Origin: an uncultured Candidatus Kuenenia sp.
GTDB lineage: Bacteria > Planctomycetota > Phycisphaerae > Sedimentisphaerales > CAMDDF01
Assembly (NCBI GenBank): GCA_964542055.1
Contig: CAZITB010000024.1
Location: 1-26,980 of the forward strand
Reading direction: 5' to 3'
DNA length: 26,980 nucleotides
Shown: positions 1-14,831 of the stretch, piece by piece
How the letters are laid out: every line of letters begins with the position of its first letter
Numbering within the stretch: position 1 is the stretch's first letter
Notes under the pieces: generated by a model
What the model saw: the letters and a program-made list of their open reading frames with translations, nothing else
The model's database searches: none
What the model was told of the DNA's origin: nothing
Position numbers and translations under genes: made by a program

Positions 1-1311
1 GTTGACACCTTGATTGAGAACTTAGAAAAACTCATTACTAAAAAACGAGACATCAAATTAGCTGCTATGCAGCAACTGCTTACCGGTAAAACTCGTCTGC
101 CCGGATTTACAGGGAAATGGGAAGAAATGACTTTAGGTGATGTAATATATGGCTGTTCAAGTGGCGCAACTCCTTCTCGAAGCAGACCCGAATTCTATAG
201 AGGTAATATTAGGTGGATTACAAGCGGTGAATTAAACTATGGTCGAATTTATGATACCGTAGAAAAAATAACAAAATTAGCAGTCCAATGCACGAGTCTT
301 AAAATCATTCCTGCTGGTACATTTTTAATGGCGATTACAGGTTTAGAAGCAGAGGGAACTCGTGGCAACTGTGGTATTGTTGGTGCTGATGCCGCGACTA
401 ATCAATCATGTATGGCGGTTTTTCCATCCGAAAAGTTATTGACCGAGTACCTGTTTTGTTATTATGTTCTAAGAGGGAAGTCACTTGCAATTCAATATTG
501 TCAAGGAACTAAACAACAGAGTTACACTGCAAAATTAGTAAAAATACTTCCTATATCTATGCCTGTTGATATTCAGGAACAAACCGCAATCTCTAATGTT
601 CTATCCGACATGGACGCTGAAATCCAAGCATTAGAAAAACGGCTTTCAAAAACCAGAGCAATAAAACAAGGTATGATGCAGGAGCTGCTGACGGGAAGAA
701 TCCGTTTAATCAAGCCTGAATCCAAATCAACTGAATCTCAAAAGAAACATAACTGGGCAATTGATGAAGCTGTAATAATCTCAACCCTAGTTGAAAAATT
801 TGGCTCAGAACAATACCCGTTGGGACGAAAGCGTTACACGAAAATGTCTTATCTGTTCCATCGCTATATTGACGGCAAAGCTGAAGGCTATGTAAAAATG
901 GCTGCTGGCCCTTACAATCCCAAGACGAAATACGGTGGAGTTGAAACTCTTGCAACAAAGAACAACTACATAAAGAATCACAAGAGTGGGCCGATGCAGG
1001 GATTTATCTCGTCAGATAATGTGCAGCAGGCTATTGACTATTTCAATAAATGGTATGGCGAAGATGCCCTGAAATGGTTGGAACAATTCCGCTATGAGAA
1101 AAACGACATTCTTGAATTATGGGCAACTGTGGATATGGCTGTAGAGGACTTGAGAAACACCCAAAAAGATATAACGGTGGCAAATGTCAAAACAGTCATT
1201 CGAAATAATAAAGAATGGAAGCCAAAGCTGAAAAGAGAGATATTTTCAGATGAGAATATTGAAAAAGCAATAAAAAAGACCCAGCAGTTATTTGCGGAGG
1301 GACAAGTATGA
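1..1311 (+). CDS. hsdS: Type I restriction-modification specificity subunit HsdS. The 5' end is cut by the window edge and the protein carries an extra ~195-aa C-terminal domain.
   Basis: Frame 1 is open from position 1 (VDTLIENLEKLITKKRDIKLAAMQQLLTGKTRLPGF), the HsdS central conserved coiled-coil repeat. A TRD-like region follows (~nt 100-580). The distal conserved repeat comes next (AISNVLSDMDAEIQALEKRLSKTRAIKQGMMQELLTGRIRL, ~nt 580-720). The ORF then continues ~195 aa beyond the normal HsdS end. The stop overlaps the hsdR start (ATGA at 1308-1311). Confidence 0.85.
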   Translation, partial: VDTLIENLEKLITKKRDIKLAAMQQLLTGKTRLPGFTGKWEEMTLGDVIYGCSSGATPSRSRPEFYRGNIRWITSGELNYGRIYDTVEKITKLAVQCTSLKIIPAGTFLMAITGLEAEGTRGNCGIVGADAATNQSCMAVFPSEKLLTEYLFCYYVLRGKSLAIQYCQGTKQQSYTAKLVKILPISMPVDIQEQTAISNVLSDMDAEIQALEKRLSKTRAIKQGMMQELLTGRIRLIKPESKSTESQKKHNWAIDEAVIISTLVEKFGSEQYPLGRKRYTKMSYLFHRYIDGKAEGYVKMAAGPYNPKTKYGGVETLATKNNYIKNHKSGPMQGFISSDNVQQAIDYFNKWYGEDALKWLEQFRYEKNDILELWATVDMAVEDLRNTQKDITVANVKTVIRNNKEWKPKLKREIFSDENIEKAIKKTQQLFAEGQV

Positions 1312-4300
1312 GCAGCGTCGGACAGAAGGAACGGATTACTCAGAACAGAATCATAGATCTGTTTCAAAACAAACTCAAATATGATTATCTGGGTAATTGG
1401 GTTGATCGTGATAACAACACTAACGTTGAAGAAAATCTTCTGAAAGACTGGCTGAAAAGGCAAGGCCACAGCGACAAAATCATCACAAAAGTGCTGCGTG
1501 AACTGGATCAGGCCAAAGCCATCGGCGGCGGTAAACGTCTTTACGAAGCAAATAAGGAAGTGCACGATAAACTCAGATATGGTGTGAAAGTAAAAGAAGA
1601 TGTCGGTCAGAAAAACCGTACAGTCTGGCTGATTGACTGGAAGAATCCTGATAAAAACGACTTTGCTATTGCTGAAGAAGTATCTATTAAGGGCGAGCAT
1701 AAAAAAAGGCCTGATGTTGTCATTTATGTCAATGGAATTGCTCTTGGTGTTTTGGAACTAAAGCGTTCAATCGTCTCTGTCGCAGAAGGTATTCGGCAGA
1801 ACCTTGATAATCAGAAAAAGACCTTTATCCGTCCTTTCTTTGCTACTGTTCAATTGGTCATGGCAGGTAATGACACGGAAGGTTTGAGATATGGTGTCAT
1901 AGAAACACAGGAAAAATATTATCTGCGATGGAAAGAACCGAATTGCATTGAAAATCCACTCGACAAAGAACTATGCCAGATCTGCAACAAAGCTAGATTC
2001 TTAGAACTGATACACGATTTTATTGTTTTTGATGCGGGGATCAAGAAAATCTGTCGGCATAACCAATACTTTGGTGTACATGCTGCTCAAGACCACGTGA
2101 GAAGACGAGAAGGTGGGATCATATGGCATACTCAAGGCAGTGGTAAAAGTTTGACGATGGTCTGGCTGGCTAAATGGATTCGTGAAAATGTAAAGAATTC
2201 CAGAGTGCTGATCATCACAGACCGGACAGAACTTGACGAGCAGATCGAAAAGATATTTAAGGGTGTAAGTGAAGACATCTACAGGACAAAAAGCGGAGCT
2301 GACTTGGTAAATGTGCTCAATGCAAATGCAGAATGGCTAATCTGTTCATTGGTACATAAATTTGGCAGACAGGAAGAAGGCGATGTTGATGAATTCATCA
2401 GAGACATCAAAAGCCACTTACCCAAAGACTTCTATGCAAAAGGTGAGATATTTGTGTTTGTAGATGAGTGCCATCGAACCCAATCGGGAAAACTGCACGA
2501 AGCGATGAAGGCAATTTTGCCGGGCGCGATGTTTATTGGCTTTACAGGCACACCACTTCTAAAAAAAGATAAAAAGAAAAGCATTGAGGTATTTGGGCCT
2601 TATATCCACACCTATAAATTCAACGAAGCTGTAAAAGATGAAGTCGTCTTGGATTTACGGTACGAAGCACGGGATATTGATCAAAATATCACATCTGAGC
2701 ATAAGATCGATCAATGGTTTGAATGCAAAACAAAAGGGTTAACAGATGTTGCTAAAGTTCAGCTAAAACAAAGATGGGGTACTTTGAAGAAAGTGCTCAG
2801 TGCACGCTCTCGATTGGAGAAGATTGTAGCTGATATCCTTATGGATATGGCCACCCGTGACCGTCTCGAAAGCGGAAGAGGAAATGCAATTCTGGTATCG
2901 GGTAGTATATATCAAGCGTGTCGTTTTTTTGAACTCTTTTCCAAAACTGATTTGGCCGGAAAATGTGCAATCATTACATCTTACAAGCCCTCTCCTGCTG
3001 ACATAAAAGGCGAAGAGTCAGGTGAGGGTATGACTGAAAAACTTCGCCAATATGATATTTATCGAAAGATGCTCGCAGAATTCTTCGACGAAAGTGAAGA
3101 AACTGCTATCAATAAAGTGGAGACATTTGAGCAGGCGATCAAGAAAAAGTTTATTGAGGAGCCAGGTCAGATGAAACTTTTGATCGTTGTGGATAAGCTG
3201 CTGACAGGTTTTGATGCTCCACCAGCAACGTATTTGTATATTGATAAGAAAATGCGAGACCACGGGCTGTTTCAGGCTATTTGTCGAGTTAATCGTTTAG
3301 ATGGCGATGACAAAGAATATGGTTACATTATTGATTATAAGGATTTATTCAAATCTCTCGAAAGGTCTATACATGACTATACTAGTGAAGCTCTTGATGG
3401 ATATGATCCCGAAGATGTTGATGGTTTGCTGAGTGACCGCCTTGAGAAAGCAAAAGAGCGATTGGAGGATGCGCGGGAGGCTATTAAAGCATTGTGCGAA
3501 CCTGTAGAAGCTCCTTATGACACTCAATCCTACCTGCGATTCTTTTGTACTTCTGATACATCTGATGTAGATATTTTGAAATCAAATGAGCCTAAACGTA
3601 TTGCGCTGTATAAAATGGCAGCAAGTCTAATCAGGGCATATTCAAATCTGGCAAATGAGATGCAGGAAGCTGGCTATACAGATGATGAAATTAGAACTAT
3701 AAAATCTGAGGTTGATCATTATGAAAAAGTTCGTACTGAAGTAAAAATGAATAGCGGAGATTATATTGATCTGAAATTATATGAGCCAGCGATGAGACAT
3801 CTTCTCGACACCTATATTCGAGCAGAAGATAGTGAAAAATTGTCCGCTTTTGATGACATGTCTTTGGTTGAGTTAGTAGTTGAACGAGGAGAGGATGCTT
3901 TCAATGAACTTCCACAAGGATTGCGTAATACAGAAGCGATGGCTGAAACTATTGAAAACAACGTTCGAAAAGTTATCATTGATGAAATGGCTGTTAATCC
4001 TAAGTATTATGAAAAAATGTCTGAATTGCTTGATGCTTTGATTCAAGAACGTAAGAAAGAGGCTATAGATTATAAAGCGTATTTGGCAAAGATTGTCGAA
4101 CTAACAAAACGAGTCAAAAAACCTGAAGCTAGCTCATATCCTAAAAATGTTGATACACCTGCAAGAAGAGCACTATACGATAATCTTGGCAAAGATGAAG
4201 AAGTTGCGATTTTAGTAGATACTGCTGTGAGAGAAAATAAGGAGCATGGCTTTAGGGGTAATCGTTTCAAAGAAAAGAAACTGATCAATGCCATAAAAAC

Positions 4301-4370
4301 TGTACTAAAGGATGATGAAAGCCTAGCTAAATCGGTATTAGAAATTGTCAAAAAACAAAATGAATACTAA
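1308..4370 (+). CDS. hsdR: Type I restriction enzyme R subunit HsdR (PD-(D/E)xK nuclease plus SF2 helicase motor).
   Basis: 1020 aa. N-terminal nuclease core PDVVIYVNGIALGVLELKRS. Helicase motif I WHTQGSGKSLTM, motif II/DEAH VFVDECHRTQSG, motif III FTGTPL. Size and order are typical of HsdR. 4-bp overlap with hsdS. Confidence 0.95.
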   Translation: MSSVGQKERITQNRIIDLFQNKLKYDYLGNWVDRDNNTNVEENLLKDWLKRQGHSDKIITKVLRELDQAKAIGGGKRLYEANKEVHDKLRYGVKVKEDVGQKNRTVWLIDWKNPDKNDFAIAEEVSIKGEHKKRPDVVIYVNGIALGVLELKRSIVSVAEGIRQNLDNQKKTFIRPFFATVQLVMAGNDTEGLRYGVIETQEKYYLRWKEPNCIENPLDKELCQICNKARFLELIHDFIVFDAGIKKICRHNQYFGVHAAQDHVRRREGGIIWHTQGSGKSLTMVWLAKWIRENVKNSRVLIITDRTELDEQIEKIFKGVSEDIYRTKSGADLVNVLNANAEWLICSLVHKFGRQEEGDVDEFIRDIKSHLPKDFYAKGEIFVFVDECHRTQSGKLHEAMKAILPGAMFIGFTGTPLLKKDKKKSIEVFGPYIHTYKFNEAVKDEVVLDLRYEARDIDQNITSEHKIDQWFECKTKGLTDVAKVQLKQRWGTLKKVLSARSRLEKIVADILMDMATRDRLESGRGNAILVSGSIYQACRFFELFSKTDLAGKCAIITSYKPSPADIKGEESGEGMTEKLRQYDIYRKMLAEFFDESEETAINKVETFEQAIKKKFIEEPGQMKLLIVVDKLLTGFDAPPATYLYIDKKMRDHGLFQAICRVNRLDGDDKEYGYIIDYKDLFKSLERSIHDYTSEALDGYDPEDVDGLLSDRLEKAKERLEDAREAIKALCEPVEAPYDTQSYLRFFCTSDTSDVDILKSNEPKRIALYKMAASLIRAYSNLANEMQEAGYTDDEIRTIKSEVDHYEKVRTEVKMNSGDYIDLKLYEPAMRHLLDTYIRAEDSEKLSAFDDMSLVELVVERGEDAFNELPQGLRNTEAMAETIENNVRKVIIDEMAVNPKYYEKMSELLDALIQERKKEAIDYKAYLAKIVELTKRVKKPEASSYPKNVDTPARRALYDNLGKDEEVAILVDTAVRENKEHGFRGNRFKEKKLINAIKTVLKDDESLAKSVLEIVKKQNEY

Positions 4371-5088
4371 ACATCATCACATTGAGGTAAATGGAATACC
4401 AGTGGAGATTGTCCGTAAGGACATAAAGAACCTTCATTTGGCGGTATACCCTCCTCATGGCCATGTAAGGGTAGCAACACCATTGCGGCTTGATGATGAA
4501 GCGGTTCGTCTAGCAGTGATTTCTCGTCTTGGTTGGATTCAGCGGCAGCAGGCCAATTTCAAAGATCAAGATCGTCAATCTGATCGTGAAATGGTCACAG
4601 GCGAAAGCCATTATGTCCAAGGCAAACGATATCGACTGGATGTAGTTGAGAAAAATGAGCCACCTGTAATAAGCATACGAAATAACAATACATTGGAATT
4701 ACAGGTGCGTCCCAATACAACACGAGTTAAGAAGCAGGAACTCTTGCAGGAATGGTATCGTCAGCGATTAAAAGAGCAGATTCCTTCCTTGGTTGTTAAA
4801 TGGGAACCGATTCTTGGGGTCTCGGTAGCTGAGTGGGGTGTAAAAAAAATGAAAACACACTGGGGCACTTGTAACATCCAAGCCCGAAGAATCTGGCTGA
4901 ATCTGGAATTAGCCAAGAAGTCTGTCGCTTGCCTCGAATATATACTAGTCCACGAAATGATTCATTTATTGGAGCGGCTGCACGATGAAAATTTCCAAGA
5001 ACTCATCGATTATCATATGCCTCAATGGAAATATTACAAGGATCAGCTTAATAGTATGCCGCTGGCCCATGAGGATTGGTTGTATTAA
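4360..5088 (+). CDS. DUF45 / M48-like (YgjP, SprT-like) zinc-dependent metal hydrolase, translationally coupled to hsdR.
   Basis: HExxH motif HEMIH near the C-terminus (LEYILVHEMIHLLERLHDENF) and a WGTC motif, both typical of COG1451/DUF45 proteins. The ATG at 4360 overlaps the hsdR stop (4368-4370). The ORF track extends to a TTG at 4345. Confidence 0.8.
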   Translation: MNTKHHHIEVNGIPVEIVRKDIKNLHLAVYPPHGHVRVATPLRLDDEAVRLAVISRLGWIQRQQANFKDQDRQSDREMVTGESHYVQGKRYRLDVVEKNEPPVISIRNNNTLELQVRPNTTRVKKQELLQEWYRQRLKEQIPSLVVKWEPILGVSVAEWGVKKMKTHWGTCNIQARRIWLNLELAKKSVACLEYILVHEMIHLLERLHDENFQELIDYHMPQWKYYKDQLNSMPLAHEDWLY

Positions 5089-5336
5089 GTAAGTCTTAAC
5101 CTTTGTTCTAAATATTTTGAATAGGAATATATATGGCTTTTAAGAAGATAACTAAAAAGCGATTTTTTCAAGAACTTGATGATCAACAAGATACCTATGA
5201 ACTCACAACTAAGGGCTATGGATTAGCAAATAAGCACAATGTAATAATGTAATTTTCTTTCTGGAAGGATCGGGTAGTTCAGGATATATATTACAGAAAA
5301 ATAGCCCAGAATGATAATATCATTTATTAATGCAAC

Positions 5337-5342
5337 TATAAT
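5337..5342 (+). promoter_or_regulatory. Possible -10 element (TATAAT) for gajA. No good -35 was found.
   Basis: TATAAT lies 12 nt upstream of the gajA ATG, inside a 265-bp AT-rich spacer. This would imply a very short leader. No Shine-Dalgarno sequence is present. Confidence 0.3.
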
Positions 5343-5353
5343 ACGAAATATCT

Positions 5354-7030
5354 ATGAGAATTAGCAAAATAAATATCGAAAATTACAAATGCTTCCAAGG
5401 TAAATTCACCTTAGAGCTTAATCCTGATGTAAATATTCTTGTCGGCAACAATGAATCTGGCAAGTCGACAATCTTAGAGGCTATCAACCTTGCACTTACA
5501 GGCATACTTAACGGGCGATATTTGAAGAATGAGCTAAGCCCATATCTTTTCAATCATCAAACAGTTGTTGATTACATTCAAAGCATTTCAAATGAATCAG
5601 TTAAAACACAGGCTCCTCCCTTCATCAGAATCGAAGTCTTTTTGAACTGTCCTGATGCCGCACGTTTTGAAGGAAATGGGAACAGCGAAAAAATTAATGC
5701 ATCCGGTGTTTCACTAATGATAGAATTTGATCCTGACTATCAATCTGAATATGAGGAGCTAATCAAATCAGGGGAACTCAAAGCAATTCCAATCGAATAT
5801 TATCGTATCTCATGGCAATCATTTGCGAGAGAGACAATTACTGCTCGCAGTATTCCTTTCAAATCTGTTTTAATTGACTCATCATCAACACGCTATCAAA
5901 ATGGATCAGATATTTATATTTCTCGGATAATTCAGGCAGATCTTGACGATACTGACAAAGCGGCCATTTCGCAAGAGTATCGAAAAATGAAAGAGATGTT
6001 CGGAGAGGCTGATGCGGTAAAAGCTATTAATGAGAAGATTAAATCTAAATCTAAAATTTCAGATAAGTCATTGTCTATTTCTGTTGATTTGGCCACTCAT
6101 AATTCCTGGCAAACATCACTAATGACATATATTGACGAAATACCGTTTCACCATGCAGGCAAAGGCGAGCAATGCGTTGTAAAAACCAATCTTGCACTGG
6201 GACACAAAAAAAGCCAAGAAGCCAATCTGATACTTTTGGAAGAACCGGAAAATCACCTGTCTCATACGCGACTCAATCAGCTTTTGAAAAATATTGAGGA
6301 TGAATGCAAAAAATGCATAAAGAAACCGGATGACTGCGAGAAGTGCGAAAATTGCAAAAACAAACAGATCATAATTTCAACTCACAGCAACTTTGTTGCA
6401 AATAAATTAGGAATTGGAAATCTTATCTTCCTAAATGACCATGCATCATCAAGGCTTACAGACTTAAGTGACAGTACTTATGAATTTTTCAAAAAACTTC
6501 CAGGTTACCAAACTCTTCGTCTGTTATTATGCAGAAAAGCAATTTTGGTTGAAGGCCCATCAGATGAGTTGGTTTTTCAAAAGGCATATATGAACGCTAA
6601 TGGTGGGAAGTTGCCTATCGAAGACGGTATAGATGTCATATCAGTTGGTTTGAGCTTTAAACGGTTTCTTGAAATAGCAAAAGCTGTAAATCAGCAAGTA
6701 GCTGTTATAACTGACAATGACGGGGATTTTGCAAATAATATCACTAAGAAATATGATGATTACAAAGATATCACATTTATTTCGATATTTTCTGATCAGA
6801 GAAATGCCCTGAAAACTCTCGAACCTCAGTTTGTTGAGGCAAATAAAGATAATTTGACTGAATTATGTCAAGCCATAAAATTAGATAACAACTCCTATGA
6901 CACAGAAGCCAAAGTCTCTGATTACATGGAAACACATAAAACAGATTGGGCACTATGTGTATTTGAATCAGATGCAAATTTAGCCTTTCCAAAATATATT
7001 ACTGATGCTGTGGTATGGTGTAATGAGTGA
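5354..7030 (+). CDS. gajA: OLD-family ATP-dependent endonuclease, GajA-like (N-terminal ABC-type ATPase plus C-terminal Toprim).
   Basis: Walker A GNNESGKST and ABC signature-like AGKGEQ. Walker B LILLEEPENHL and H-loop ISTHS. Toprim motifs LVEGPSDE and VITDNDGD. 558 aa. A UvrD-like helicase gene follows immediately and overlaps it, which is the class 2 OLD / Gabija arrangement. Confidence 0.75.
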   Translation: MRISKINIENYKCFQGKFTLELNPDVNILVGNNESGKSTILEAINLALTGILNGRYLKNELSPYLFNHQTVVDYIQSISNESVKTQAPPFIRIEVFLNCPDAARFEGNGNSEKINASGVSLMIEFDPDYQSEYEELIKSGELKAIPIEYYRISWQSFARETITARSIPFKSVLIDSSSTRYQNGSDIYISRIIQADLDDTDKAAISQEYRKMKEMFGEADAVKAINEKIKSKSKISDKSLSISVDLATHNSWQTSLMTYIDEIPFHHAGKGEQCVVKTNLALGHKKSQEANLILLEEPENHLSHTRLNQLLKNIEDECKKCIKKPDDCEKCENCKNKQIIISTHSNFVANKLGIGNLIFLNDHASSRLTDLSDSTYEFFKKLPGYQTLRLLLCRKAILVEGPSDELVFQKAYMNANGGKLPIEDGIDVISVGLSFKRFLEIAKAVNQQVAVITDNDGDFANNITKKYDDYKDITFISIFSDQRNALKTLEPQFVEANKDNLTELCQAIKLDNNSYDTEAKVSDYMETHKTDWALCVFESDANLAFPKYITDAVVWCNE

Positions 7031-8159
7031 GAATAGACTTGTTATTGCGGCAGCCGGTTCAGGCAAGACAACATATCTTGTTAATGAATCAATGAAAAGA
7101 GACGGAAAAGTCTTGATTCTTACTTACACACTATCTAACGAAGATGTAATAAAAAGACGATTAATTCAGAAAGCTGGTTGCATACCTCAAAATATAACAG
7201 TTAATACATGGTTTTCTTTTTTACTTCAGCATGGCGTGAAGCCTTATCAGGGCAGCATTGATGATTCAATGTTTGACTATCATATCCGCGGAATGCTACT
7301 TGTAAATAAGCAATCTGGATTTCGCTGTAAAACAGGAAAACATCCTGTTTATTGGAAAGAAAGCAACATAGATAAACACTATTTCAGCAAAAGAAATAAA
7401 ATCTATTCTGATAAAATTTCAAAATTTGTATTCAAATGTAATACTCAGTCGGGCGGAGCAGTCATTGATCGACTTGCTCGTATATACGATCATGTTTTCA
7501 TTGATGAAGTTCAGGATTTAGCAGGATACGACCTAGAATTGATCAAATTATTATTCAGTTCTTCAATTTCAGTCCTGCTTGTTGGTGACCCGCGACAAGT
7601 AACCTATCTGACACATTTAGAACGAAAACACGCAAAGTATCAAAACGGTAAAATTCGCAAATTCGTAGAAAATGAACTTGAAAAAAATATTATTTGCAAC
7701 ATAGACGAATCAACACTTCAAGCATCTCATCGATGTTGTGATCCAATCTGTAAATATGCATCTCGACTTTATCCGGATATGCCGGAAACAACTTCTTGTT
7801 CATGTTGTGGCCAAAGTACAATCAATCATCAAGGGATATTTTTGGTTAAGCCAGATCAAATACAAGAATACACTCGAAAATATAATGTAACACAATTAAG
7901 GTGGGATAGAAAGTCAGGCGTTCTTCCTTCTATACCGGTAATGAATTTCGGGGAAGCCAAAGGAGAAACCTTCGACAGAGTTCTTATATACCCAACGAAA
8001 GATATGGCAAAGTGGGTCGAAAATGGTTCTACGTCTTTATCTGATGCTTCGAGGGCAAAATTTTATGTTGCAATCACGCGTGCTCGTTACAGTGCAGCTA
8101 TAGTTTTGAATTATGATTCAGCTCAAAGTTATGAAGGAACCAGTATGTATGTGTCTTGA
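7023..8159 (+). CDS. gajB: UvrD/PcrA-like SF1 helicase, GajB-like, compact (~378 aa).
   Basis: Motif I AAAGSGKTT, motif II FIDEVQDL, motif III VGDPRQ and motif VI VAITRAR. The start is taken as the ATG at 7023 (MSENRL...), overlapping the gajA stop in an ATGAGTGA context. An upstream in-frame ATG at 7005 is also possible. Confidence 0.7.
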   Translation: MSENRLVIAAAGSGKTTYLVNESMKRDGKVLILTYTLSNEDVIKRRLIQKAGCIPQNITVNTWFSFLLQHGVKPYQGSIDDSMFDYHIRGMLLVNKQSGFRCKTGKHPVYWKESNIDKHYFSKRNKIYSDKISKFVFKCNTQSGGAVIDRLARIYDHVFIDEVQDLAGYDLELIKLLFSSSISVLLVGDPRQVTYLTHLERKHAKYQNGKIRKFVENELEKNIICNIDESTLQASHRCCDPICKYASRLYPDMPETTSCSCCGQSTINHQGIFLVKPDQIQEYTRKYNVTQLRWDRKSGVLPSIPVMNFGEAKGETFDRVLIYPTKDMAKWVENGSTSLSDASRAKFYVAITRARYSAAIVLNYDSAQSYEGTSMYVS

Positions 8160-8529
8160 CATATAGCAACTCTTTTTCTCTCCCCGTTAACCGCCTCCAT
8201 CTCTGTTTTTCTAAAACACCCAGAAATCGCCCGTGTCGAGAGAGGTTTGTATCTCGCCTATACACTCGAGTTCGGATCGATGGGCTATCCTGACCGGCTT
8301 TCTGGCGGTCATGTGGAAGATTGGATGTTAAGTCGTTGCCAGATAAGCATTAATCTGGCAGTTAACAGGTTCGAAATCGGGTGTTTGAAATGATCTCAAA
8401 TGCATGTGTTAGAACTGGTATGGTTCGGGGAGCTTTTTTATGCGCTAAAAACGGGGTTTAGGGTTTACTTACTTTTGACAAAGGATGCAATGCCTTAAAA
8501 TTTTAAATCATTCGGTGGCAGTGAAGGCT

Positions 8530-9009
8530 TTATGGAAATGGACTTGGCCGGTTGGGGTATTTTCGTAAAATGGCAAAGCGAGGAAATTTTCCTGGGGGGA
8601 CGCCTTGGTGTTCTAGTTTTTGGGGGCTTTTGAAGCCGAATCGCTGGTAAAAATTTGGATCGCCGACAAGAACGCAACCTTTTGCACCCCTGTCCTTTAA
8701 AATGCGGATACCTTCATTTATCAGCTTTGTTCCGATGCCTTGCCGCTGGAGGGCAGGTATTACAGATATCGGGCCTATGCCGTACCAGTTCAGGCTGCTA
8801 TCTGTAAACGTTACCGGTGAGAAGGCGATGTGCCCTACAACTTTACCATCCGTCTCGGCTACAAGAGAAAGGCTCAGGGCATCGGCGGCTCGCAAGGCAT
8901 TTATAATAAATTGCTCGGTGTTACGGCTGTATGGATGATTTTCAAATGCGGCCTTGGTAATTTCCGTAATTTGATCCCAATCGTCAGGGGTTTCGGGGCG
9001 GATCATCAT
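8530..9009 (-). CDS. GNAT family N-acetyltransferase.
   Basis: 159 aa. Acetyl-CoA binding motif A QRQGIGTKLINEG and the conserved fold pattern VVGHIAFSPV ... GCVLVGDPNFYQRFGF. Confidence 0.8.
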   Translation of the reverse strand: MMIRPETPDDWDQITEITKAAFENHPYSRNTEQFIINALRAADALSLSLVAETDGKVVGHIAFSPVTFTDSSLNWYGIGPISVIPALQRQGIGTKLINEGIRILKDRGAKGCVLVGDPNFYQRFGFKSPQKLEHQGVPPGKFPRFAILRKYPNRPSPFP

Positions 9010-9416: not shown

Positions 9417-10067
9417 TTAAGACAAATCGACGGAAGTTATACCTTCTTTTATGGCATACTTTGTGAGATTTGCCAGGCTGTCCAGATCAAGCTTGTTCAT
9501 TATTCTTGTTCGGTGGCCTTCTACGGTTTTTGGGCTGATGTGGAGAATCATGCCTATTTGTTTGGTCGTCTTGCCTTCGGCGAGCAACTGAAGGACCTCA
9601 CGCTCCCGGTCGGATAACTTCGCAAAGACATTTGAATTGGCTTCGCTATTGATCATATAATTTTCGACAACGATACCGGTTATGGCTGGGCTGATGTAGT
9701 TTTTGTCATCGACTACTATTCTAATGGCATCAATCAGTTCCTGGTATTCACAATCTTTAAGTAGATATCCCTTTGCGCCGGCCCTGAACATTTCATGTAT
9801 CATCTTTTTATTAGAGTGCATCGATAAGGCTATTATCCTGGTATTTGGGAACTCTTTTGAAATCTGGCGTGTCGCCTCTATTCCGTTTAGTTCGGGCATG
9901 GCGATATCCATGATCACCACGTCTGGTGAAGTTTCTTTAACCATCTGCAGAATCTGATGGCCATTTTCCGCTTCTCCAATTACCTGCATATCGTTTTCGT
10001 TATCAAATGCCTGAGCCAATCCATGTCTTAAAACTTTGTGGTCATCTGCCAAAGCTATCCTGATCAT
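9417..10067 (-). CDS. NarL/FixJ (LuxR-type HTH) two-component response regulator.
   Basis: REC domain with the DD...D...K pattern (IALADDH, VVIMDIAMP, IIALS, AKGYLLK). C-terminal LuxR HTH (LSDREREVLQLLAEGKTTKQIGMILHISPKTVEGHRTRIMNKL). 19 bp downstream of the kinase gene. Confidence 0.9.
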   Translation of the reverse strand: MIRIALADDHKVLRHGLAQAFDNENDMQVIGEAENGHQILQMVKETSPDVVIMDIAMPELNGIEATRQISKEFPNTRIIALSMHSNKKMIHEMFRAGAKGYLLKDCEYQELIDAIRIVVDDKNYISPAITGIVVENYMINSEANSNVFAKLSDREREVLQLLAEGKTTKQIGMILHISPKTVEGHRTRIMNKLDLDSLANLTKYAIKEGITSVDLS

Positions 10068-10086: not shown

Positions 10087-13000
10087 TTAAAAATCGGCGG
10101 GCACAGATAGATTTACCTCGGTGCCTTTGCCTTGTACTGATTCAATTTTCACTTTTCCTCCCACATTGCTGATCCTTTCTTCCAAACTGAAAAGCCCGTA
10201 TCCTCTTGCTTTCTTTTTCGAGTTTAATCTTTTTACATCAAAGCCCCTGCCGTTATCTTTTACACGAACTTTTAGCTTTCCATCCAGACAAGCGAGGGCA
10301 ATTTGAACTTCACTGGCCTGGCTGTGTTTGGAGACATTGACAAGAAGTTCCCTAATAGTCCTGTAAATCAGAATTTTCAGTTCCTCGGAGATATCCTTCA
10401 TATCGCCGCTGCTGTGGAAATGTATTTGATATTCATTTTTATTAGAAAACTCTTCGGCAAGTTCTTCAATGGCAGCTTCAAGACCTAACGTATAAAGAGT
10501 AGCTGAGCTCAAGTCAAAAGTCAATGTCCTGGTCTGGTTAACGGCTTCTTTGATTTGCATCCACACCTCTTCAAGTGAAGGCCTGATATCTTCGGGGGCT
10601 TTTTTCATTATGATGCCAAGTTCCTTCTTAGAAAATGACAGTAACTGCCCGATCGAATCGTGAAGTTTTAGTGCGAAGTCTCTCTTTTCTCTTTCTTCTG
10701 CAAAGATCAGTTCTGAAGAAAGGTCTCTTAGCCTGGTTTGGTTTTCAAGTAATTTCTTCTCAGCCTCTACCCTGGACAAAACTTCATCCTGGAGAACTTC
10801 TACTGTTTTTTGCAGCTGGTAAGTCCTGTCGCGTACACGTGATTCAAGGACTTTATTGAGATCCCTTAGCTTTTGTTCGCTTTGGCGCAATGCTACTTCA
10901 GCTTTGTGTACTTGCGTCATATCAATAGCGATACTTACGTGGAAATCCTGGCCGGGATCCACTAATGCTGCAGCACCTAGATATGGAGTTTGACCGCCGT
11001 CAGGTTTGATAAATACTCTCTCATATCCAGCTATTTTACCCTCTCTGAAAAGCTTTTCTGTAAAGTACTTTTGTTCAGCCAGCGATTCAGGGGCTAAGCA
11101 TTGGACCCAGTTTATTTTACCCGCCTCGTAATCCTCTCGGGTGTAGCCCATCATCCGAAGCATTTCGTCATTTACATAAGAGATGTTTCCATCGGTATCC
11201 CCAAAAGCAACTCCTATAAGATTAGCATCTGCGATTCGTCGATATATGGCTTCACTTCTTTTCAAGGCTTCTTCGGTTTCCTTGCGCTGAGTTATATCCT
11301 GTGTTGTCCCAAAGCCGCTTATAATCTGGCCGTTTTCCCCATATTCCAGTTCTGCCCTTTCCAAGACCCATTTGATTTCGCTGCCTACAACAATACGATG
11401 TTCTAAATAGTAGTAGTCCTGATTTAAAGACTTCCAAATATCATTAATCATTTCCCTGTCATCAGGATGAACGATATTTAAAAAATCTTCATAGGTAACT
11501 TTTTGTCCTTTTGGTATTCCAAAGATTCGATAAGTCTCATCTGACCAGCTAAACTGCTTTGTCTTAATATCAAATCTCCAACTGCCCAATTTTGCTACTT
11601 TTTGGGCGGTCTTTAAATCATCAGTGCTACTTTGGAGTTTTTTCTCCATCTGTCTGGATTCAGTAACATCTCGGATGATTTTCAGTTTAGAAGGTTGATC
11701 GGCTCCAAGCTGCAGAAAAGGTACTTCTACGGCATCATAAATTCTGTTATTTGAGGGACAGGTAAATTCTCGTATTATGTTCTTTCCTTGAATTACTTCT
11801 TCGAAGGCACAGTTTTCGCATGGTTGTGAATAACCGTAAAGATACTCAAAACATTTACGATTGTTTATAGAGCCGAAAATTTTTCGCATAGCTGGATTTA
11901 TGTATTCAATTTTATGCTCTTGATTGACTATATAAATTCCATCGGGTATAGCGTCGAGGATTTTTCTGGTTTTTTCGTACTCGTCATAAATTGCTTTAGT
12001 ATTAAGAAAATCCCTCAAACTTATGTTAATTAACTCGTTAAAAGCTGATATAAGTCTAAGATCATTTTTATTGAATGTTTCTTTTCTGGCAAGGGCGAAA
12101 ATTCCACAGACCTGTTCATTTATCAGCAGTGGAGATAAAGCCAAGTTTAAACTTGCATTTTCCTTGCCTTGAGCTCTGATGACCATTTTTTTATATTCGA
12201 CGACTTCATTTATATATGTTTTTAAATCCTGGCTGTTTAGCTTTTCTTTAAACGAATCTTCATTCGGAACATAAACATCGGTGTAATTTTTTTTGTAATT
12301 TGAAAGCATTGTTATCGCTGAATTGTCAATATTTAAAAGTTTGTTACAATCTTTCAAAATCGACTGAGCAACAGTTTCGAATTTCTGGCCGGTTAGAACG
12401 TGTCGGTTTGACGTTAGAAGAGCTTCAACTTCAGAAGTTCTGGATTTGGCTGCCTCAAGGGCTTTGTTTAATACGATTTCATTTTTTTTAAGATCACCAA
12501 ACAGTGTATTATAAGGATTTTCAAGTTGCGTCTTGATCAGGGCCCGGTAAAGCAGATAGAAAGCTACAATCTTAAAAAAATGACCTAATATTATGATGTA
12601 CTCGTAAACATTGGTGTATAAGGTGAAGAAAATTTCTGAAGCAGTGGAAAATAACAGGCTTAATACCAAATATATTGATATGGATTTTTCGAAACGGCTT
12701 CGGTTAAAAAAAATAAGGATCGCTGCTGAAACGAAAATCGCGCAAATGATATATTCACTGATAATTTTAAAAGTTGTCAGCCCCTGTCCTTCGATCAGGC
12801 AGTCTGGGAAAATTTTCCAGTTAAAAATGGAAAGGATTATCAATGTACATATAATCGAATAAGACAGAAAAACTGCATGTTTGTTGACTTTCCTGCTAAA
12901 GTAAAAAGAGGCAATCAAAAAAGTTAAACCATGTATGTATCTTGCTGCTATCCAAAGCTGAGTTGGGGTATTTGCTTCTTCGGCAAAAACTCCCATTCCT

Positions 13001-13254
13001 TCATAAGAAAGTGTATGCAGAAGATCAAAAATTCCAATAAAGAAAAAAGCAATACCTATAAATGTCAGAAAGCTGTTTTTGGCGAATTTCTGGCTGCTCC
13101 AGACAATTACAAACATCGCAACTGCAACTGCAATGCTAAACAGTTCCACAATAGTATGAAAAAGAAGGAAGTTAAACGTGCTGATCCAGTAAAGCAACCA
13201 TAAGAAAACAGCAGAGTAAAATAAAAACCATAATTTGTCTTTTTTGACTTCCAT
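10087..13254 (-). CDS. Large hybrid-architecture sensor histidine kinase: polytopic membrane sensor domain, GAF, multiple PAS domains, HisKA_3 and HATPase_c.
   Basis: ~8 hydrophobic helices at the N-terminus. A GAF-like segment and at least three PAS-like segments follow. H-box KLHDSIGQLLS is NarL-partner HisKA_3 type. ATPase motifs DNGRGFD and GYGL. The start is placed at the ATG at 13254 (MEVKKDKL...) because the predicted promoter (-10 at 13313-13318) lies inside the longer 13377 ORF extension. Confidence 0.85.
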   Translation of the reverse strand: MEVKKDKLWFLFYSAVFLWLLYWISTFNFLLFHTIVELFSIAVAVAMFVIVWSSQKFAKNSFLTFIGIAFFFIGIFDLLHTLSYEGMGVFAEEANTPTQLWIAARYIHGLTFLIASFYFSRKVNKHAVFLSYSIICTLIILSIFNWKIFPDCLIEGQGLTTFKIISEYIICAIFVSAAILIFFNRSRFEKSISIYLVLSLLFSTASEIFFTLYTNVYEYIIILGHFFKIVAFYLLYRALIKTQLENPYNTLFGDLKKNEIVLNKALEAAKSRTSEVEALLTSNRHVLTGQKFETVAQSILKDCNKLLNIDNSAITMLSNYKKNYTDVYVPNEDSFKEKLNSQDLKTYINEVVEYKKMVIRAQGKENASLNLALSPLLINEQVCGIFALARKETFNKNDLRLISAFNELINISLRDFLNTKAIYDEYEKTRKILDAIPDGIYIVNQEHKIEYINPAMRKIFGSINNRKCFEYLYGYSQPCENCAFEEVIQGKNIIREFTCPSNNRIYDAVEVPFLQLGADQPSKLKIIRDVTESRQMEKKLQSSTDDLKTAQKVAKLGSWRFDIKTKQFSWSDETYRIFGIPKGQKVTYEDFLNIVHPDDREMINDIWKSLNQDYYYLEHRIVVGSEIKWVLERAELEYGENGQIISGFGTTQDITQRKETEEALKRSEAIYRRIADANLIGVAFGDTDGNISYVNDEMLRMMGYTREDYEAGKINWVQCLAPESLAEQKYFTEKLFREGKIAGYERVFIKPDGGQTPYLGAAALVDPGQDFHVSIAIDMTQVHKAEVALRQSEQKLRDLNKVLESRVRDRTYQLQKTVEVLQDEVLSRVEAEKKLLENQTRLRDLSSELIFAEEREKRDFALKLHDSIGQLLSFSKKELGIIMKKAPEDIRPSLEEVWMQIKEAVNQTRTLTFDLSSATLYTLGLEAAIEELAEEFSNKNEYQIHFHSSGDMKDISEELKILIYRTIRELLVNVSKHSQASEVQIALACLDGKLKVRVKDNGRGFDVKRLNSKKKARGYGLFSLEERISNVGGKVKIESVQGKGTEVNLSVPADF

Positions 13255-13291
13255 GGATAGCACATATTCAAAAAATTTAGAGACCGTTAAA

Positions 13292-13312
13292 ATCCTGAAT
13301 CCTGAATCCTGA
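13292..13312. repeat. Perfect tandem heptamer (ATCCTGA)x3. On the minus strand this reads TCAGGAT x3.
   Basis: It was read directly in the sequence, immediately adjacent to the kinase -10 element in the divergent kinase/trpB2 intergenic region. Confidence 0.9.
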
Positions 13313-13340
13313 ATTATACCACAATTATCGAATAAATCAA
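13313..13340 (-). promoter_or_regulatory. Sigma70-like promoter for the sensor kinase operon (minus strand): TTGATT, 16 bp spacer, TGgTATAAT extended -10.
   Basis: The reverse complement of 13335-13340 is TTGATT. The reverse complement of 13313-13318 is TATAAT, preceded by TGG. The predicted TSS falls inside the heptamer repeat at 13292-13312. Confidence 0.5.
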
Positions 13341-13376
13341 CATATAAGAAGTTGACAATTTTTCTCTGATAAATCA

Positions 13377-13405
13377 TTGAATTATCAATTGAAATACTGT
13401 ATAAT
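13377..13405 (+). promoter_or_regulatory. Sigma70-like promoter for trpB2: TTGAAT, 17 bp spacer, TATAAT.
   Basis: TTGAAT at 13377-13382 and TATAAT at 13400-13405. The ATG is at 13443. Confidence 0.55.
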
Positions 13406-13442
13406 TTTTCGAAATTTGATTATTTCTGAATTGGAGTTATTT

Positions 13443-14831
13443 ATGGATAGAAAAATTCTTTTAAATGAAAAGGATATTCCGCGTCAATGGTATAATCTGG
13501 CTGCTGACCTTCCAAATCCTCCTCAGCCGCCGCTGGGACCTGATGGCAAACCTATCACTCCTGAAATGCTTGCACCTGTATTTCCGATGAATATTATCGA
13601 ACAGGAAGTCAGTACTCAAAGATGGATAGATATACCGGAAGAAATACTTGATATTTTATACAGATGGAGACCGGCACCTCTCAGGCGAGCGGTTTACCTG
13701 GAAAGGTATCTCGATACTCCGGCAAAGATATACTACAAGGATGAAAGTACTTCACCGGCGGGCAGCCATAAACCCAATACTGCCGTTGCCCAGGCCTGGT
13801 ATAATAAACAGTTCGGTATTGAAAGGATCACCACTGAAACCGGAGCCGGGCAATGGGGATCTGCACTTGCTTTTGCGTGTCAGCTTATTGGCCTGGAATG
13901 TAAGGTTTTCATGGTGCGGATCAGTTTTGATCAGAAACCGTTTAGAAAATTTATGATGAATGTCTGGGGTGCTAATTGTGTGGCAAGCCCAAGCAGTGAG
14001 ACTAAAACCGGGCAGAAGATACTGGAAGAACAACCTGATACTCCGGGTTCACTTGGAATTGCTATTTCAGAAGCTGTTGAACAAGCAGTTACTGATGAAA
14101 CCGGCAAAACCAAATATTCGCTTGGTAGCGTTTTGAATCATGTAATGCTCCACCAAAGTATTATTGGGCTGGAAGCGAAAAAACAGCTTGCGATGGTTGG
14201 CGTGGACAAGCCAGATATTGTAATTGGCTGTGCAGGGGGCGGAAGTAATTTTGCGGGTATTTCGTTCCCGTTTGTAGCGGATAAAATCAATGGAGCCGAT
14301 ATCGAGATCATACCGGTGGAACCGACAGCATGTCCGACATTGACCAAGGCACCTTTTGCTTATGACCATGGCGATACGGCATGTATGACTCCTCTGCTTG
14401 CGATGCATTCGCTCGGTCATGCGTTTGTACCGGCACCTTTCCATGCCGGCGGGCTGCGTTATCATGGTATGGCACCGCTTGTGAGCCAGGCTGCAGTGGA
14501 AGGGCTTCTTACGCCAAGGTCTTATAATCAGCTGAAATGTTATGAAGCTGCGATGACCTGGGCAAATACTGAAGGAACGATCTGTGCTCCAGAAACCAGC
14601 CATGCCATTGCAGGTGCCATTGATGAAGCACTAAAAGCCAAAGAAGAAGGCAAAGAAAAGAATATTCTGTTCTGTTATTCGGGACATGGCTTGATGGACC
14701 TTACCGGATATGATGCTTATCTATCTGGTAAACTTACCGATTATGAACTTTCTCAGGAAGATTTTGATAAGTTCACATCGTGTTTTAAAGATATGCCAAA
14801 GCCGCCTGTTAATAAAAGTGGTAAGTGGTAA
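13443..14831 (+). CDS. trpB: TrpB2-type tryptophan synthase beta-like PLP-dependent enzyme, stand-alone.
   Basis: PLP-lysine motif SPAGSHKPNTA. A glycine-rich loop GCAGGGSNFAG. Length ~462 aa with the N-terminal extension typical of TrpB2. GGAG RBS 7 nt upstream of the ATG at 13443. No trpA is adjacent. The ORF-track start at 13377 is upstream of the predicted promoter. Confidence 0.85.
   Translation: MDRKILLNEKDIPRQWYNLAADLPNPPQPPLGPDGKPITPEMLAPVFPMNIIEQEVSTQRWIDIPEEILDILYRWRPAPLRRAVYLERYLDTPAKIYYKDESTSPAGSHKPNTAVAQAWYNKQFGIERITTETGAGQWGSALAFACQLIGLECKVFMVRISFDQKPFRKFMMNVWGANCVASPSSETKTGQKILEEQPDTPGSLGIAISEAVEQAVTDETGKTKYSLGSVLNHVMLHQSIIGLEAKKQLAMVGVDKPDIVIGCAGGGSNFAGISFPFVADKINGADIEIIPVEPTACPTLTKAPFAYDHGDTACMTPLLAMHSLGHAFVPAPFHAGGLRYHGMAPLVSQAAVEGLLTPRSYNQLKCYEAAMTWANTEGTICAPETSHAIAGAIDEALKAKEEGKEKNILFCYSGHGLMDLTGYDAYLSGKLTDYELSQEDFDKFTSCFKDMPKPPVNKSGKW

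Follow-up and report, generated by a model that had tools for sequence, protein, structure and literature searches.

Type I restriction-modification (R-M) systems and Gabija are among the commonest defence systems, and they are often co-located. In a type I system an M2S1 methyltransferase is guided by HsdS to its bipartite site, and the addition of HsdR gives a translocating endonuclease which cuts unmethylated foreign DNA. According to its published definition, Class 2 OLD/Gabija consists of an OLD gene with a UvrD-like gene as its partner, whereas the OLDs of Class 1 are encoded by stand-alone genes; Class 2 OLDs are also about 50 amino acids (aa) longer than those of Class 1, the difference being a helical insert in the TOPRIM domain (PMC10568477). 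In the Gabija system of Bacillus cereus, GajA and GajB form a complex, GajA nicks DNA and nucleotides restrain GajA (PMC10568477). The GajB of B. cereus (BcGajB) has 494 aa, with an accessory subdomain at residues 314-416 (PMC10681800). Another system of relevance is DarTG, in which DarG's C-terminal domain binds and sequesters the DarT toxin (PMC7003065; PMC11543638) and which is reported to be often inserted in type I R-M operons (PMC8883491). Here we describe positions 1-8159 of contig CAZITB010000024.1 (assembly GCA_964542055.1, uncultured Candidatus Kuenenia sp.), the window of our analysis being the complete contig of 26,980 bp. This segment is very probably the visible right-hand part of an ordinary defence island in a Sedimentisphaerales-like planctomycete, made of two independent DNA-targeting modules, a type I R-M system and a compact Gabija-type cassette. 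The specificity subunit of the former carries, in addition, a C-terminal domain resembling that of DarG.

Five consecutive open reading frames (ORFs) are found on the plus strand at 1/10..1311, 1308..4370, 4345..5088, 5354..7030 and 7005..8159, and genes on both strands follow to the right. The first is the 3' part of hsdS, the gene of the type I specificity subunit (1..1311, stop codon at 1309-1311). Frame 1 is open from base 1 and hsdS runs off the left end, so that the left border of the island is out of view. Fused in frame to the HsdS end is a module of 195 aa (724..1308, plus strand), similar to the DarT-binding C-terminal domain of DarG. The second gene, hsdR (1308..4370), encodes a type I restriction subunit of 1020 aa with an N-terminal nuclease, a superfamily 2 (SF2) translocase and a C-terminal domain, and the third a YgjP-like/DUF45 (SprT-family) zinc metallopeptidase (4360..5088), the ORF of which is open from TTG 4345 and the likely start of which is ATG 4360. 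An AT-rich spacer of 265 bp on the same strand (5089..5353), the only sizeable gap in the five-gene block, lies between the two modules. The second module consists of GajA, an OLD-family ATPase-TOPRIM nuclease of 558 aa (5354..7030) assigned by PADLOC, Pfam, motifs and fold, and a short GajB-type UvrD-like superfamily 1 (SF1) helicase/ATPase of 378 aa (7023..8159), open from 7005 and with its likely start at ATG 7023. The genes hsdS and hsdR overlap by 4 nucleotides (nt; ATGA), and a GGAGG motif is located upstream of hsdR. Given the starts at ATG 4360 and ATG 7023, the overlap is 11 nt for hsdR and the DUF45 gene and 8 nt for GajA and GajB, the latter being 8-11 nt in homologous loci. A non-coding right border of 370 bp (8160..8529) separates the block from a convergent GNAT gene. 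An earlier interpretation made from the letters alone (the sequence-only reading) had described five consecutive plus-strand genes with overlapping or closely spaced boundaries and a left border beyond the window, and both descriptions were confirmed. A type I R-M system and a Gabija-type pair are thus present within 8.2 kb, the cassette with signs of mobility, as is typical of a defence island.

The assignment of the second module was made with curated Gabija hidden Markov models (HMMs). The PADLOC models for GajA and GajB match the two proteins at 5354-8159 end to end, and hence the Gabija/OLD call made by the sequence-only reading passed its own profile check. GajA was aligned to PDLC00102 with an E of 1e-212 (residues 1-554 vs profile positions 1-530 of 532) and, again over the full length, to the longer PADLOC GajA model PDLC00078 of 580 positions with an E of 2.7e-42; GajB was aligned to PDLC00148 with an E of 2.9e-144 (profile positions 1-358 of 369). 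Pfam gave AAA_15 and OLD-like_TOPRIM (E 1.3e-12) in GajA, and UvrD-helicase, AAA_19 and UvrD_C in GajB. The N-terminal ABC ATPase and the C-terminal TOPRIM with catalytic acidic residues that define the OLD family are both found in GajA: Walker A is at G31-T39 (GNNESGKST), Walker B lies in LILLEEPE (292-299), and the TOPRIM domain has E400, D404/E405 and the triad D454-N-D456. The motif residues (Walker A/B, E400 and D454-N-D456) are invariant in 21 homologues. In GajB the SF1 motifs I (AAAGSGKTT), II (IDEVQD), III (GDPRQ), V and VI (VAITRAR) can be recognized, together with a cysteine cluster formed by C243, C259, C261 and C262 (plus H269; window 7749-7829), and neither motifs nor cluster vary among four orthologues, which come from both bacteria and archaea. 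The UvrD-like partner expected of a Gabija/Class 2 OLD is coupled to GajA here, and the same pairing occurs in the related loci L019-L024 and L046.

As an observation apart from these, GajA residues ~321-336 (window 6314-6361) form a Cys-rich insertion of 16 residues, KKCIKKPDDCEKCENC, just before a conserved C-K-x-K-Q…STHS segment. Among the family members only the closest homologue (P0002) has this insertion too, and 19 others lack it; the model confidence is low in this region.

An OLD gene paired with a UvrD-like gene was seen in all six loci examined, i.e. the window and five other contexts. By gene context and sequence the 5354-8159 pair qualifies as Class 2 OLD/Gabija-type, and it belongs to a compact, uncharacterised subfamily with a GajA of ~540 aa and a GajB of ~380 aa, of which no characterised member was found in a literature search. 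In comparison with Gabija of B. cereus VD045, the window pair shares the two-gene operon; the Walker motifs A and B, the glutamate of TOPRIM and the DxD triad are common to the GajA proteins, and the SF1 motifs I-VI to the GajB proteins. The GajA structure was modelled by AlphaFold2, with a predicted local distance difference test score (pLDDT) of 66 overall and 84-93 in TOPRIM. When this model was searched with Foldseek, the best fold match was B. cereus GajA (BcGajA; 8u7i_A, E 1e-13), followed by the Class 1 OLD of Thermus scotoductus (6p74, E 5e-13), which has the same ATPase-TOPRIM fold and a similar length; 8x5i and 8sm3 were also found, the identities being ~14%. In contrast to the stand-alone genes of Class 1, the window-type GajA is coupled to a UvrD-like gene at every one of the six loci.

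Several findings weigh against placing the pair with B. cereus Gabija. Similarity to the validated B. cereus GajA/GajB was not found at the level of sequence, and the likeness is one of fold only, at ~14% identity. Neither phmmer nor a 21-sequence profile retrieved any GajA/GajB chain from the PDB at E <= 1, and the best OLD hit of the profile search was the Class 1 Thermus enzyme 6p74 (E 3.4e-7). GajA was modelled with low confidence in its ATPase half. In addition, GajB is shorter than BcGajB and has a cysteine cluster that is not known from BcGajB, so the geometry or regulation of the complex may differ. The cautious wording "Gabija-like" chosen by the sequence-only reading is therefore apt. 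From these data a different explanation can be drawn, that the pair is a separate compact OLD nuclease plus SF1 ATPase variant working unlike B. cereus Gabija, with another stoichiometry, without nucleotide sensing, or as a non-specific exo/endonuclease like the Class 2 OLDs of Burkholderia/Xanthomonas. We consider it a possibility of some weight, although an unlikely one. It would agree with the nearly equal fold matches of the window GajA to BcGajA and to the Class 1 Thermus OLD, with the retrieval of 6p74 instead of GajA from the PDB, and with the length of GajA (540-558 aa), which is comparable to the 528 aa of the Class 1 Thermus chain; a ~380-aa GajB having a conserved cysteine cluster where BcGajB has its accessory subdomain points in the same direction, and Class 2 OLDs are already biochemically diverse (table in PMC10568477). 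However, the gene context fits the Class 2/Gabija definition in all the loci examined, all ATPase, TOPRIM and helicase motifs are kept, and GajA is aligned over its full length to the longer PDLC00078 model. The length of GajA (558 aa in the window and typically 540-542 aa in the family, vs 528 aa for the Thermus chain 6p74) may also be set beside the helical insert of Class 2; in the GajA model several helices follow the DxD motif.

A further difference from B. cereus VD045 Gabija lies in GajB, which has 378-388 aa and a conserved 4-Cys cluster in the window-type family vs 494 aa in B. cereus. The window protein is ~116 aa shorter than BcGajB, and the spacing of its motifs places the deficit in the C-terminal half. 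This suggests that GajB of the compact subfamily probably lacks the C-terminal accessory subdomain and has the cysteine cluster in its place; the cluster may be a zinc site replacing the accessory subdomain of longer GajB proteins. Under the Class 2 OLD/Gabija assignment, the second module would act as an ABC-ATPase plus TOPRIM GajA whose translation is coupled to that of a short UvrD-like GajB. If B. cereus Gabija is taken as the guide, a GajA-GajB complex is expected, in which the nucleotide state and DNA ends would gate nicking or cleavage of phage DNA by GajA. Phage protection, a 4:4 GajA-GajB complex and a nucleotide-gated nuclease are accordingly what the analogy predicts for the window pair.

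The sequence-only reading had also proposed that the whole segment was a horizontally acquired accessory block. Homologues of GajA with 60-82% identity were found in Methanosarcina, Methanogenium, Pontiella and many metagenomes, the identity being 75% for Methanosarcina sp. Mfa9, 63% for Methanogenium cariaci and 61% for Pontiella agarivorans. The neighbourhoods of these GajAB pairs all differ. In L019 and L020 the pair follows SNF2 and DUF4391 genes; in L024 (Methanosarcina) it is next to AbiEii; in L021 a type I operon harbours it, with hsdM/DUF1016 on one side and RhuM/hsdR on the other; and in L046 (Pontiella) it lies between genes for RecQ and a DEAD helicase. At the nucleotide level, homology to the other GajAB loci starts at 5353/5354, which is the ATG of GajA, and ends at ~8105-8117 inside the 3' end of GajB, and so it comprises the two ORFs alone. 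Since a GajA 75% identical to an archaeal protein is found in a planctomycete host, and since the homology stops at the ORF ends, it is well supported by these comparisons that GajAB is a mobile two-gene cassette exchanged between bacteria and archaea. Horizontal acquisition was thus substantiated for the cassette alone, by the identity to the Methanosarcina protein, the ends of homology and the varied neighbourhoods.

In L021, an ORF of 192 aa (9426-10004) with a weak, partial Methylase_S match lies ahead of GajA. Perhaps this is an HsdS of half size or a truncated one, and insertion of the cassette into or beside hsdS is suggested for that locus. On the plasmid pL4046hy of Pseudomonas juntendi (NZ_CP146692.1 56097-67823; L047, L049 6098-9191), a Gabija pair lies directly upstream of an operon with the order hsdM-hsdS-hyp-hsdR-SprT. 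That pair is of another subfamily, with a GajA of 572 aa (PDLC04168) and a GajB of 462 aa (PDLC04173), and it is non-orthologous to the window pair. The same trio of Gabija, type I operon and terminal SprT gene therefore stands side by side on pL4046hy, the Gabija pair being upstream of hsdM there and downstream of DUF45 in the window; this arrangement in another order supports the island reading.

For the block as a whole, composition gave a less clear result. GajA and GajB have a GC content of 0.36 and the lowest GC at third codon positions (GC3) in the window, 0.31 and 0.27. However, the codon-usage distance of the island genes (0.12-0.18) is inside the range of the other genes (0.09-0.30), and the tetranucleotide correlation of the island is only slightly lower than that of the rest of the contig. 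Compared with the flanking genes, then, a slight dip in GC and GC3 is present in GajA/GajB while codon usage is within the native range, and the compositional evidence for a foreign origin of the island is weak. The lowest GC in the window, 0.33-0.35, was observed below that of the island, in the MASE3 membrane-sensor half of a histidine kinase gene (11500-13400); low GC alone does not therefore mark foreign DNA here.

At the visible island border no integrase, tRNA, tmRNA, transposase, Rfam element or flanking repeat was found. The right border at 8160-8529 contains no tRNA, Rfam family or terminator-like site, no repeat shared with the 5089-5353 spacer and no convincing ORF; the stretch may be a scar left where the island joins its flank. 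In the spacer itself there is one weak promoter-like site (5290-5318) and no Rfam match, the promoter scan giving 18 sites vs 15 +/- 4 expected, which is not significant. An ORF of 39 aa, MAFKKITKKRFFQELDDQQDTYELTTKGYGLANKHNVIM, was noticed in the spacer at 5133-5252; it has no Pfam or PADLOC match and lies outside the conserved cassette. Exact matches to the HsdR and GajA proteins were not retrieved, and the response regulator of the window was recovered on a 1.7-kb Logan contig only. No orthologue of the histidine kinase was found in the genome or metagenome collections, where the best partial matches were 59-66% identical; at the genome-collection loci of these matches no other gene of the window was matched and no syntenic relative was found, and the two nearest homologues of a TrpB-like protein of the window (88% identity) are in unrelated neighbourhoods.

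Another explanation of these data would be that the block is a long-resident part of the genome of this lineage, its accessory look being due to the lack of relatives. The codon-usage distance and tetranucleotide correlation of the island, both similar to the values for the remainder of the contig, and the bare border are in its favour. Nevertheless, the archaeal similarity of GajA with homology ending at the ORF boundaries speaks for transfer of at least 5354-8159; the GajAB cassette occurs in five unrelated neighbourhoods; the GC3 of GajA/GajB is the lowest in the window; and DUF45 together with such type I operons occurs on conjugative plasmids. Long residence of the block thus seems improbable, and we keep to the reading of an island with a mobile Gabija-type cassette.

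The first module was analysed in the same way, and the profiles confirmed the type I R-M and DUF45 assignments of the sequence-only reading. There is no stop in frame 1 from position 1, and the window begins inside the central conserved region of HsdS, with which the translation opens (…KKRDIKLAAMQQLLTGKTRLPGF). One target-recognition domain (TRD) follows, then the C-terminal conserved helix (…AIKQGMMQELLTGRIRLIKPE) and then 195 further residues. More precisely, residues 1-36 are the central conserved region, TRD2 is at nt ~115-645 and the C-terminal conserved helix at nt ~610-720. HsdS matches Pfam Methylase_S (E 1.8e-17) and PADLOC Specificity_I (E 3e-82), and with several HsdS profiles its residues 2-234 were aligned to the C-terminal half. 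Of the TRDs and conserved coiled-coil regions that characterize a type I HsdS, both conserved regions are readable and TRD2 alone is visible. HsdR shows the N-terminal nuclease and SF2 translocase of a type I restriction subunit, with matches to Pfam HSDR_N (E 1.8e-42), SWI2_SNF2 (E 4.7e-72) and a T1R_D3-like domain (E 2.8e-37), to PADLOC REase_I PDLC03044 (1540 bits, residues 1-1008 vs profile positions 1-1022 of 1034) and to TIGR00348 (E 1.5e-167, 559 bits vs a cut-off of 284.55).

Since hsdM and TRD1 of hsdS are outside the view, the completeness of the type I system is assumed, and this also has to be counted against the proposed island. Related loci are of help here. In L025 an HsdS homologue of 654 aa (6768..8732) has a full TRD1, conserved region, TRD2, conserved region and extra domain, and the operon runs hsdM, DUF1016, hsdS with the extra C-terminal domain, two inserted genes, hsdR and a YgjP-like gene. 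The plasmids pL4046hy of P. juntendi and pEu2 of Euhalothece both carry the series hsdM ... hsdS ... hsdR, SprT, which ends with SprT. Because hsdM is upstream of hsdS in L025 and on these plasmids, we infer that it lies just off the contig, upstream of hsdS, and by this analogy the first module would read hsdM (off contig), hsdS, hsdR and SprT/DUF45. The pL4046hy and pEu2 operons resemble the window in having hsdS, hsdR and DUF45 in the same order, with a DUF45 identity of 54-58%; pL4046hy resembles it further in an identical 11-nt overlap of hsdR and DUF45 and in a Gabija pair adjoining the operon. In contrast, the plasmid HsdS proteins are of ~404-415 aa and are without the C-terminal extra domain.

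The sequence-only reading had counted two or three distinct anti-phage functions in the block. Two systems were recovered, whereas the third, which would be DUF45, did not stand as a function of its own. The protein has a clear PF01863 match (E 7.7e-56, 189.8 bits vs a cut-off of 26), a SprT-like match (E 6.7e-8) and the motif HEMIH, i.e. a Pfam score above gathering and an HExxH zinc site as expected of a YgjP-like/DUF45 protein, and no match to a PADLOC model. When annotated plasmids were searched by tblastn, DUF45 homologues were found in 55 records, where they are 51-58% identical and bear the name SprT family zinc-dependent metalloprotease, and in six of the 12 top plasmid hits the DUF45 match also overlaps the HsdR feature. 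In L025 the YgjP-like gene, directly after hsdR, is 68-71% identical to the window DUF45 gene at the nucleotide level. Again and again, hsdM-hsdS-hsdR operons end with DUF45, as seen in Pseudomonas, cyanobacteria, Rhodococcus, Mycolicibacterium and L025.

That DUF45 is a third, independent anti-phage function could be argued from its being a predicted zinc protease with an intact HExxH in a defence context. The lack of a PADLOC model, the 11-nt overlap with hsdR both here and on pL4046hy and the recurrence at the end of hsdM-hsdS-hsdR operons all speak against this, and we regard it as very unlikely. Because hsdM-hsdS-hsdR-SprT operons repeatedly close with this gene, DUF45 is best read from sequence as an accessory of the type I system, conserved in terminal position and translationally coupled to hsdR, and as no separate system. 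It would then be an operon passenger; a role in regulating or clearing the HsdR complex is a guess. The link between DUF45 and type I systems comes from locus comparisons, and a literature search retrieved no paper on a link of DUF45/YgjP to type I R-M (two matches concerned DUF450). COG1451 was reportedly associated with type I systems in earlier defence-island surveys.

The most interesting element of the locus, which the sequence-only reading missed, is the DarG-like fusion of HsdS. The ~195 C-terminal residues of the first ORF do not belong to HsdS proper and make up a domain of their own, with an N-terminal winged helix and a helical bundle. No Pfam match was obtained for this extra domain, either alone or in 18 relatives. 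It matches the C-terminal half of the NCBIfam DarG model NF048014 (positions 161-337 of 338, E 5e-5), and the same region of the model is matched by 13 of 19 relatives of the domain (best E 1.6e-7); the scores for the domain, 23-26 bits, are far below the cut-off of 250. An AlphaFold2 model built on 51 homologues had a pLDDT of 94.4. When it was compared with the PDB by Foldseek, there were two significant matches only, and both are DarG chains of the Mycobacterium tuberculosis DarT-DarG complex 7yk3 (E 1.5e-4, probability 1.00, template modelling (TM) score 0.58-0.60). The extra domain thus has the fold of the DarG C-terminal DarT-binding domain. When the domain profile was run against PDB sequences, the HsdS helix of 1yf2 was the sole match. 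Panacea/SocA (DUF4065), which had been suspected from the motif pattern of the extension, gave no Pfam match in it or in the 18 relatives, and the DarG C-terminal domain is the identity supported.

The domain differs from that of DarG (7yk3, NF048014) in being carried by HsdS and not by a glycohydrolase, and in its identity of ~14%. No DarT (DUF4433) or DarG macrodomain was matched in the window ORFs by Pfam and NCBIfam, or among the neighbours of three related fusions. Since DarT and the macrodomain are missing from these and NF048014 scores far below its cut-off, the locus of the HsdS-fused domain is not a DarTG system, as far as the operon is in view, its part upstream of the contig end being out of sight.

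To see how common the architecture is, the domain profile was searched against 1.84 billion representatives. The family comprises 755 clusters (50% identity) at E <= 1e-3 and 322 at E <= 1e-30, and the majority of the clusters are HsdS fusions of ~600 aa. At least 500 aa were present in 115 of the 145 new top representatives (median 606), the domain being C-terminal, and Methylase_S was found in seven of eight domain representatives scanned. A minority of the proteins have other N-termini, e.g. P0166 and P0175. The domain was not found in the plasmid and phage collections, and a literature search gave no paper describing a DarG-like domain fused to HsdS. Judged from sequence, a combination of HsdS with a domain like the DarG C-terminal one is widespread.

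What the extra domain does can be considered by analogy. Since a DarT gene is missing, the role favoured as the most likely is that of a docking site for proteins on the methyltransferase core, and a DNA role of the winged helix is the alternative. A more elaborate proposal is that the domain is a docking or antitoxin-type module tethering an effector or operon protein to the type I methyltransferase core, so that the R-M complex would double as a guard, releasing a second response when a phage anti-restriction factor disables R-M. There is a precedent for an R-M complex keeping an abortive-infection effector, namely PrrC-EcoprrI, where an anticodon nuclease is held latent by a type Ic R-M complex. 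In contrast to that system, the surroundings of hsdS yielded no toxin gene here, PrrC-like or otherwise; the comparison is only a lead, and we judge such a guard function to be quite improbable, docking on the methyltransferase core being preferred.

Two side observations concern the neighbours of related domains. In L025 (8729-10996) and L026 (1064-2452) the HsdS gene with the DarG-like C-terminal domain is directly followed by a gene for a HATPase_c_4 plus winged helix-turn-helix (wHTH) protein, which is accompanied by DUF4062 in L025 and by SLFN/AlbA_2 in L026 and is absent from the window; this neighbour could be a partner of the extra domain. In L028 (7276-8867), a DarG-CTD-like protein without any HsdS part (P0175, 288 aa; CTD, C-terminal domain) is encoded with a 4-nt overlap after an ORF of 195-242 aa lacking a Pfam match, and the two may form a separate two-gene module.

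The other genes of the window encode a GNAT protein, a small ferredoxin, a LuxR-type response regulator, the MASE3-PAS histidine kinase, the TrpB-like enzyme, a DEAD-box helicase, an SPFH protein, an acyl-AMP ligase-like (AMP-binding) enzyme, a hydrolase, a MiaB-like radical SAM enzyme, CorA and an outer-membrane efflux protein. No specific defence match was obtained for them with PADLOC, which yielded only generic helicase-core or CorA matches, in agreement with the core metabolic or envelope functions attributed to them earlier; they are housekeeping genes. Identities of the TrpB-like protein are 88% to its counterpart in Limihaloglobus sulfuriphilus and 80-84% to many proteins of Phycisphaerae metagenome-assembled genomes, and from these matches the host was assigned to Sedimentisphaerales/Phycisphaerae. 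A Desulfobacterales host, at which weak partial kinase matches had hinted, was rejected because the TrpB-like matches are much stronger. The database copy of this gene (13377-14831) has 462 aa vs 484 aa for the longest ORF from TTG 13377; the true start is probably ~22 codons downstream, which would remove a 1-nt abutment with the kinase gene on the opposite strand.

As a defence locus the island is routine, and both of its modules are further examples of known systems. The compact Gabija subfamily offers a minimal natural version for asking which parts of GajB are needed. The C-terminal domain of HsdS may be useful as well: it is unannotated, occurs in hundreds of HsdS families and has no Pfam model, and its fold is one that DarG uses to sequester a toxin. 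If the guard reading were true, these proteins would be an undescribed, widespread class of "armed" specificity subunits. The domain may explain why DarTG is so frequently intertwined with type I R-M, or it may reveal a new accessory function of these systems.

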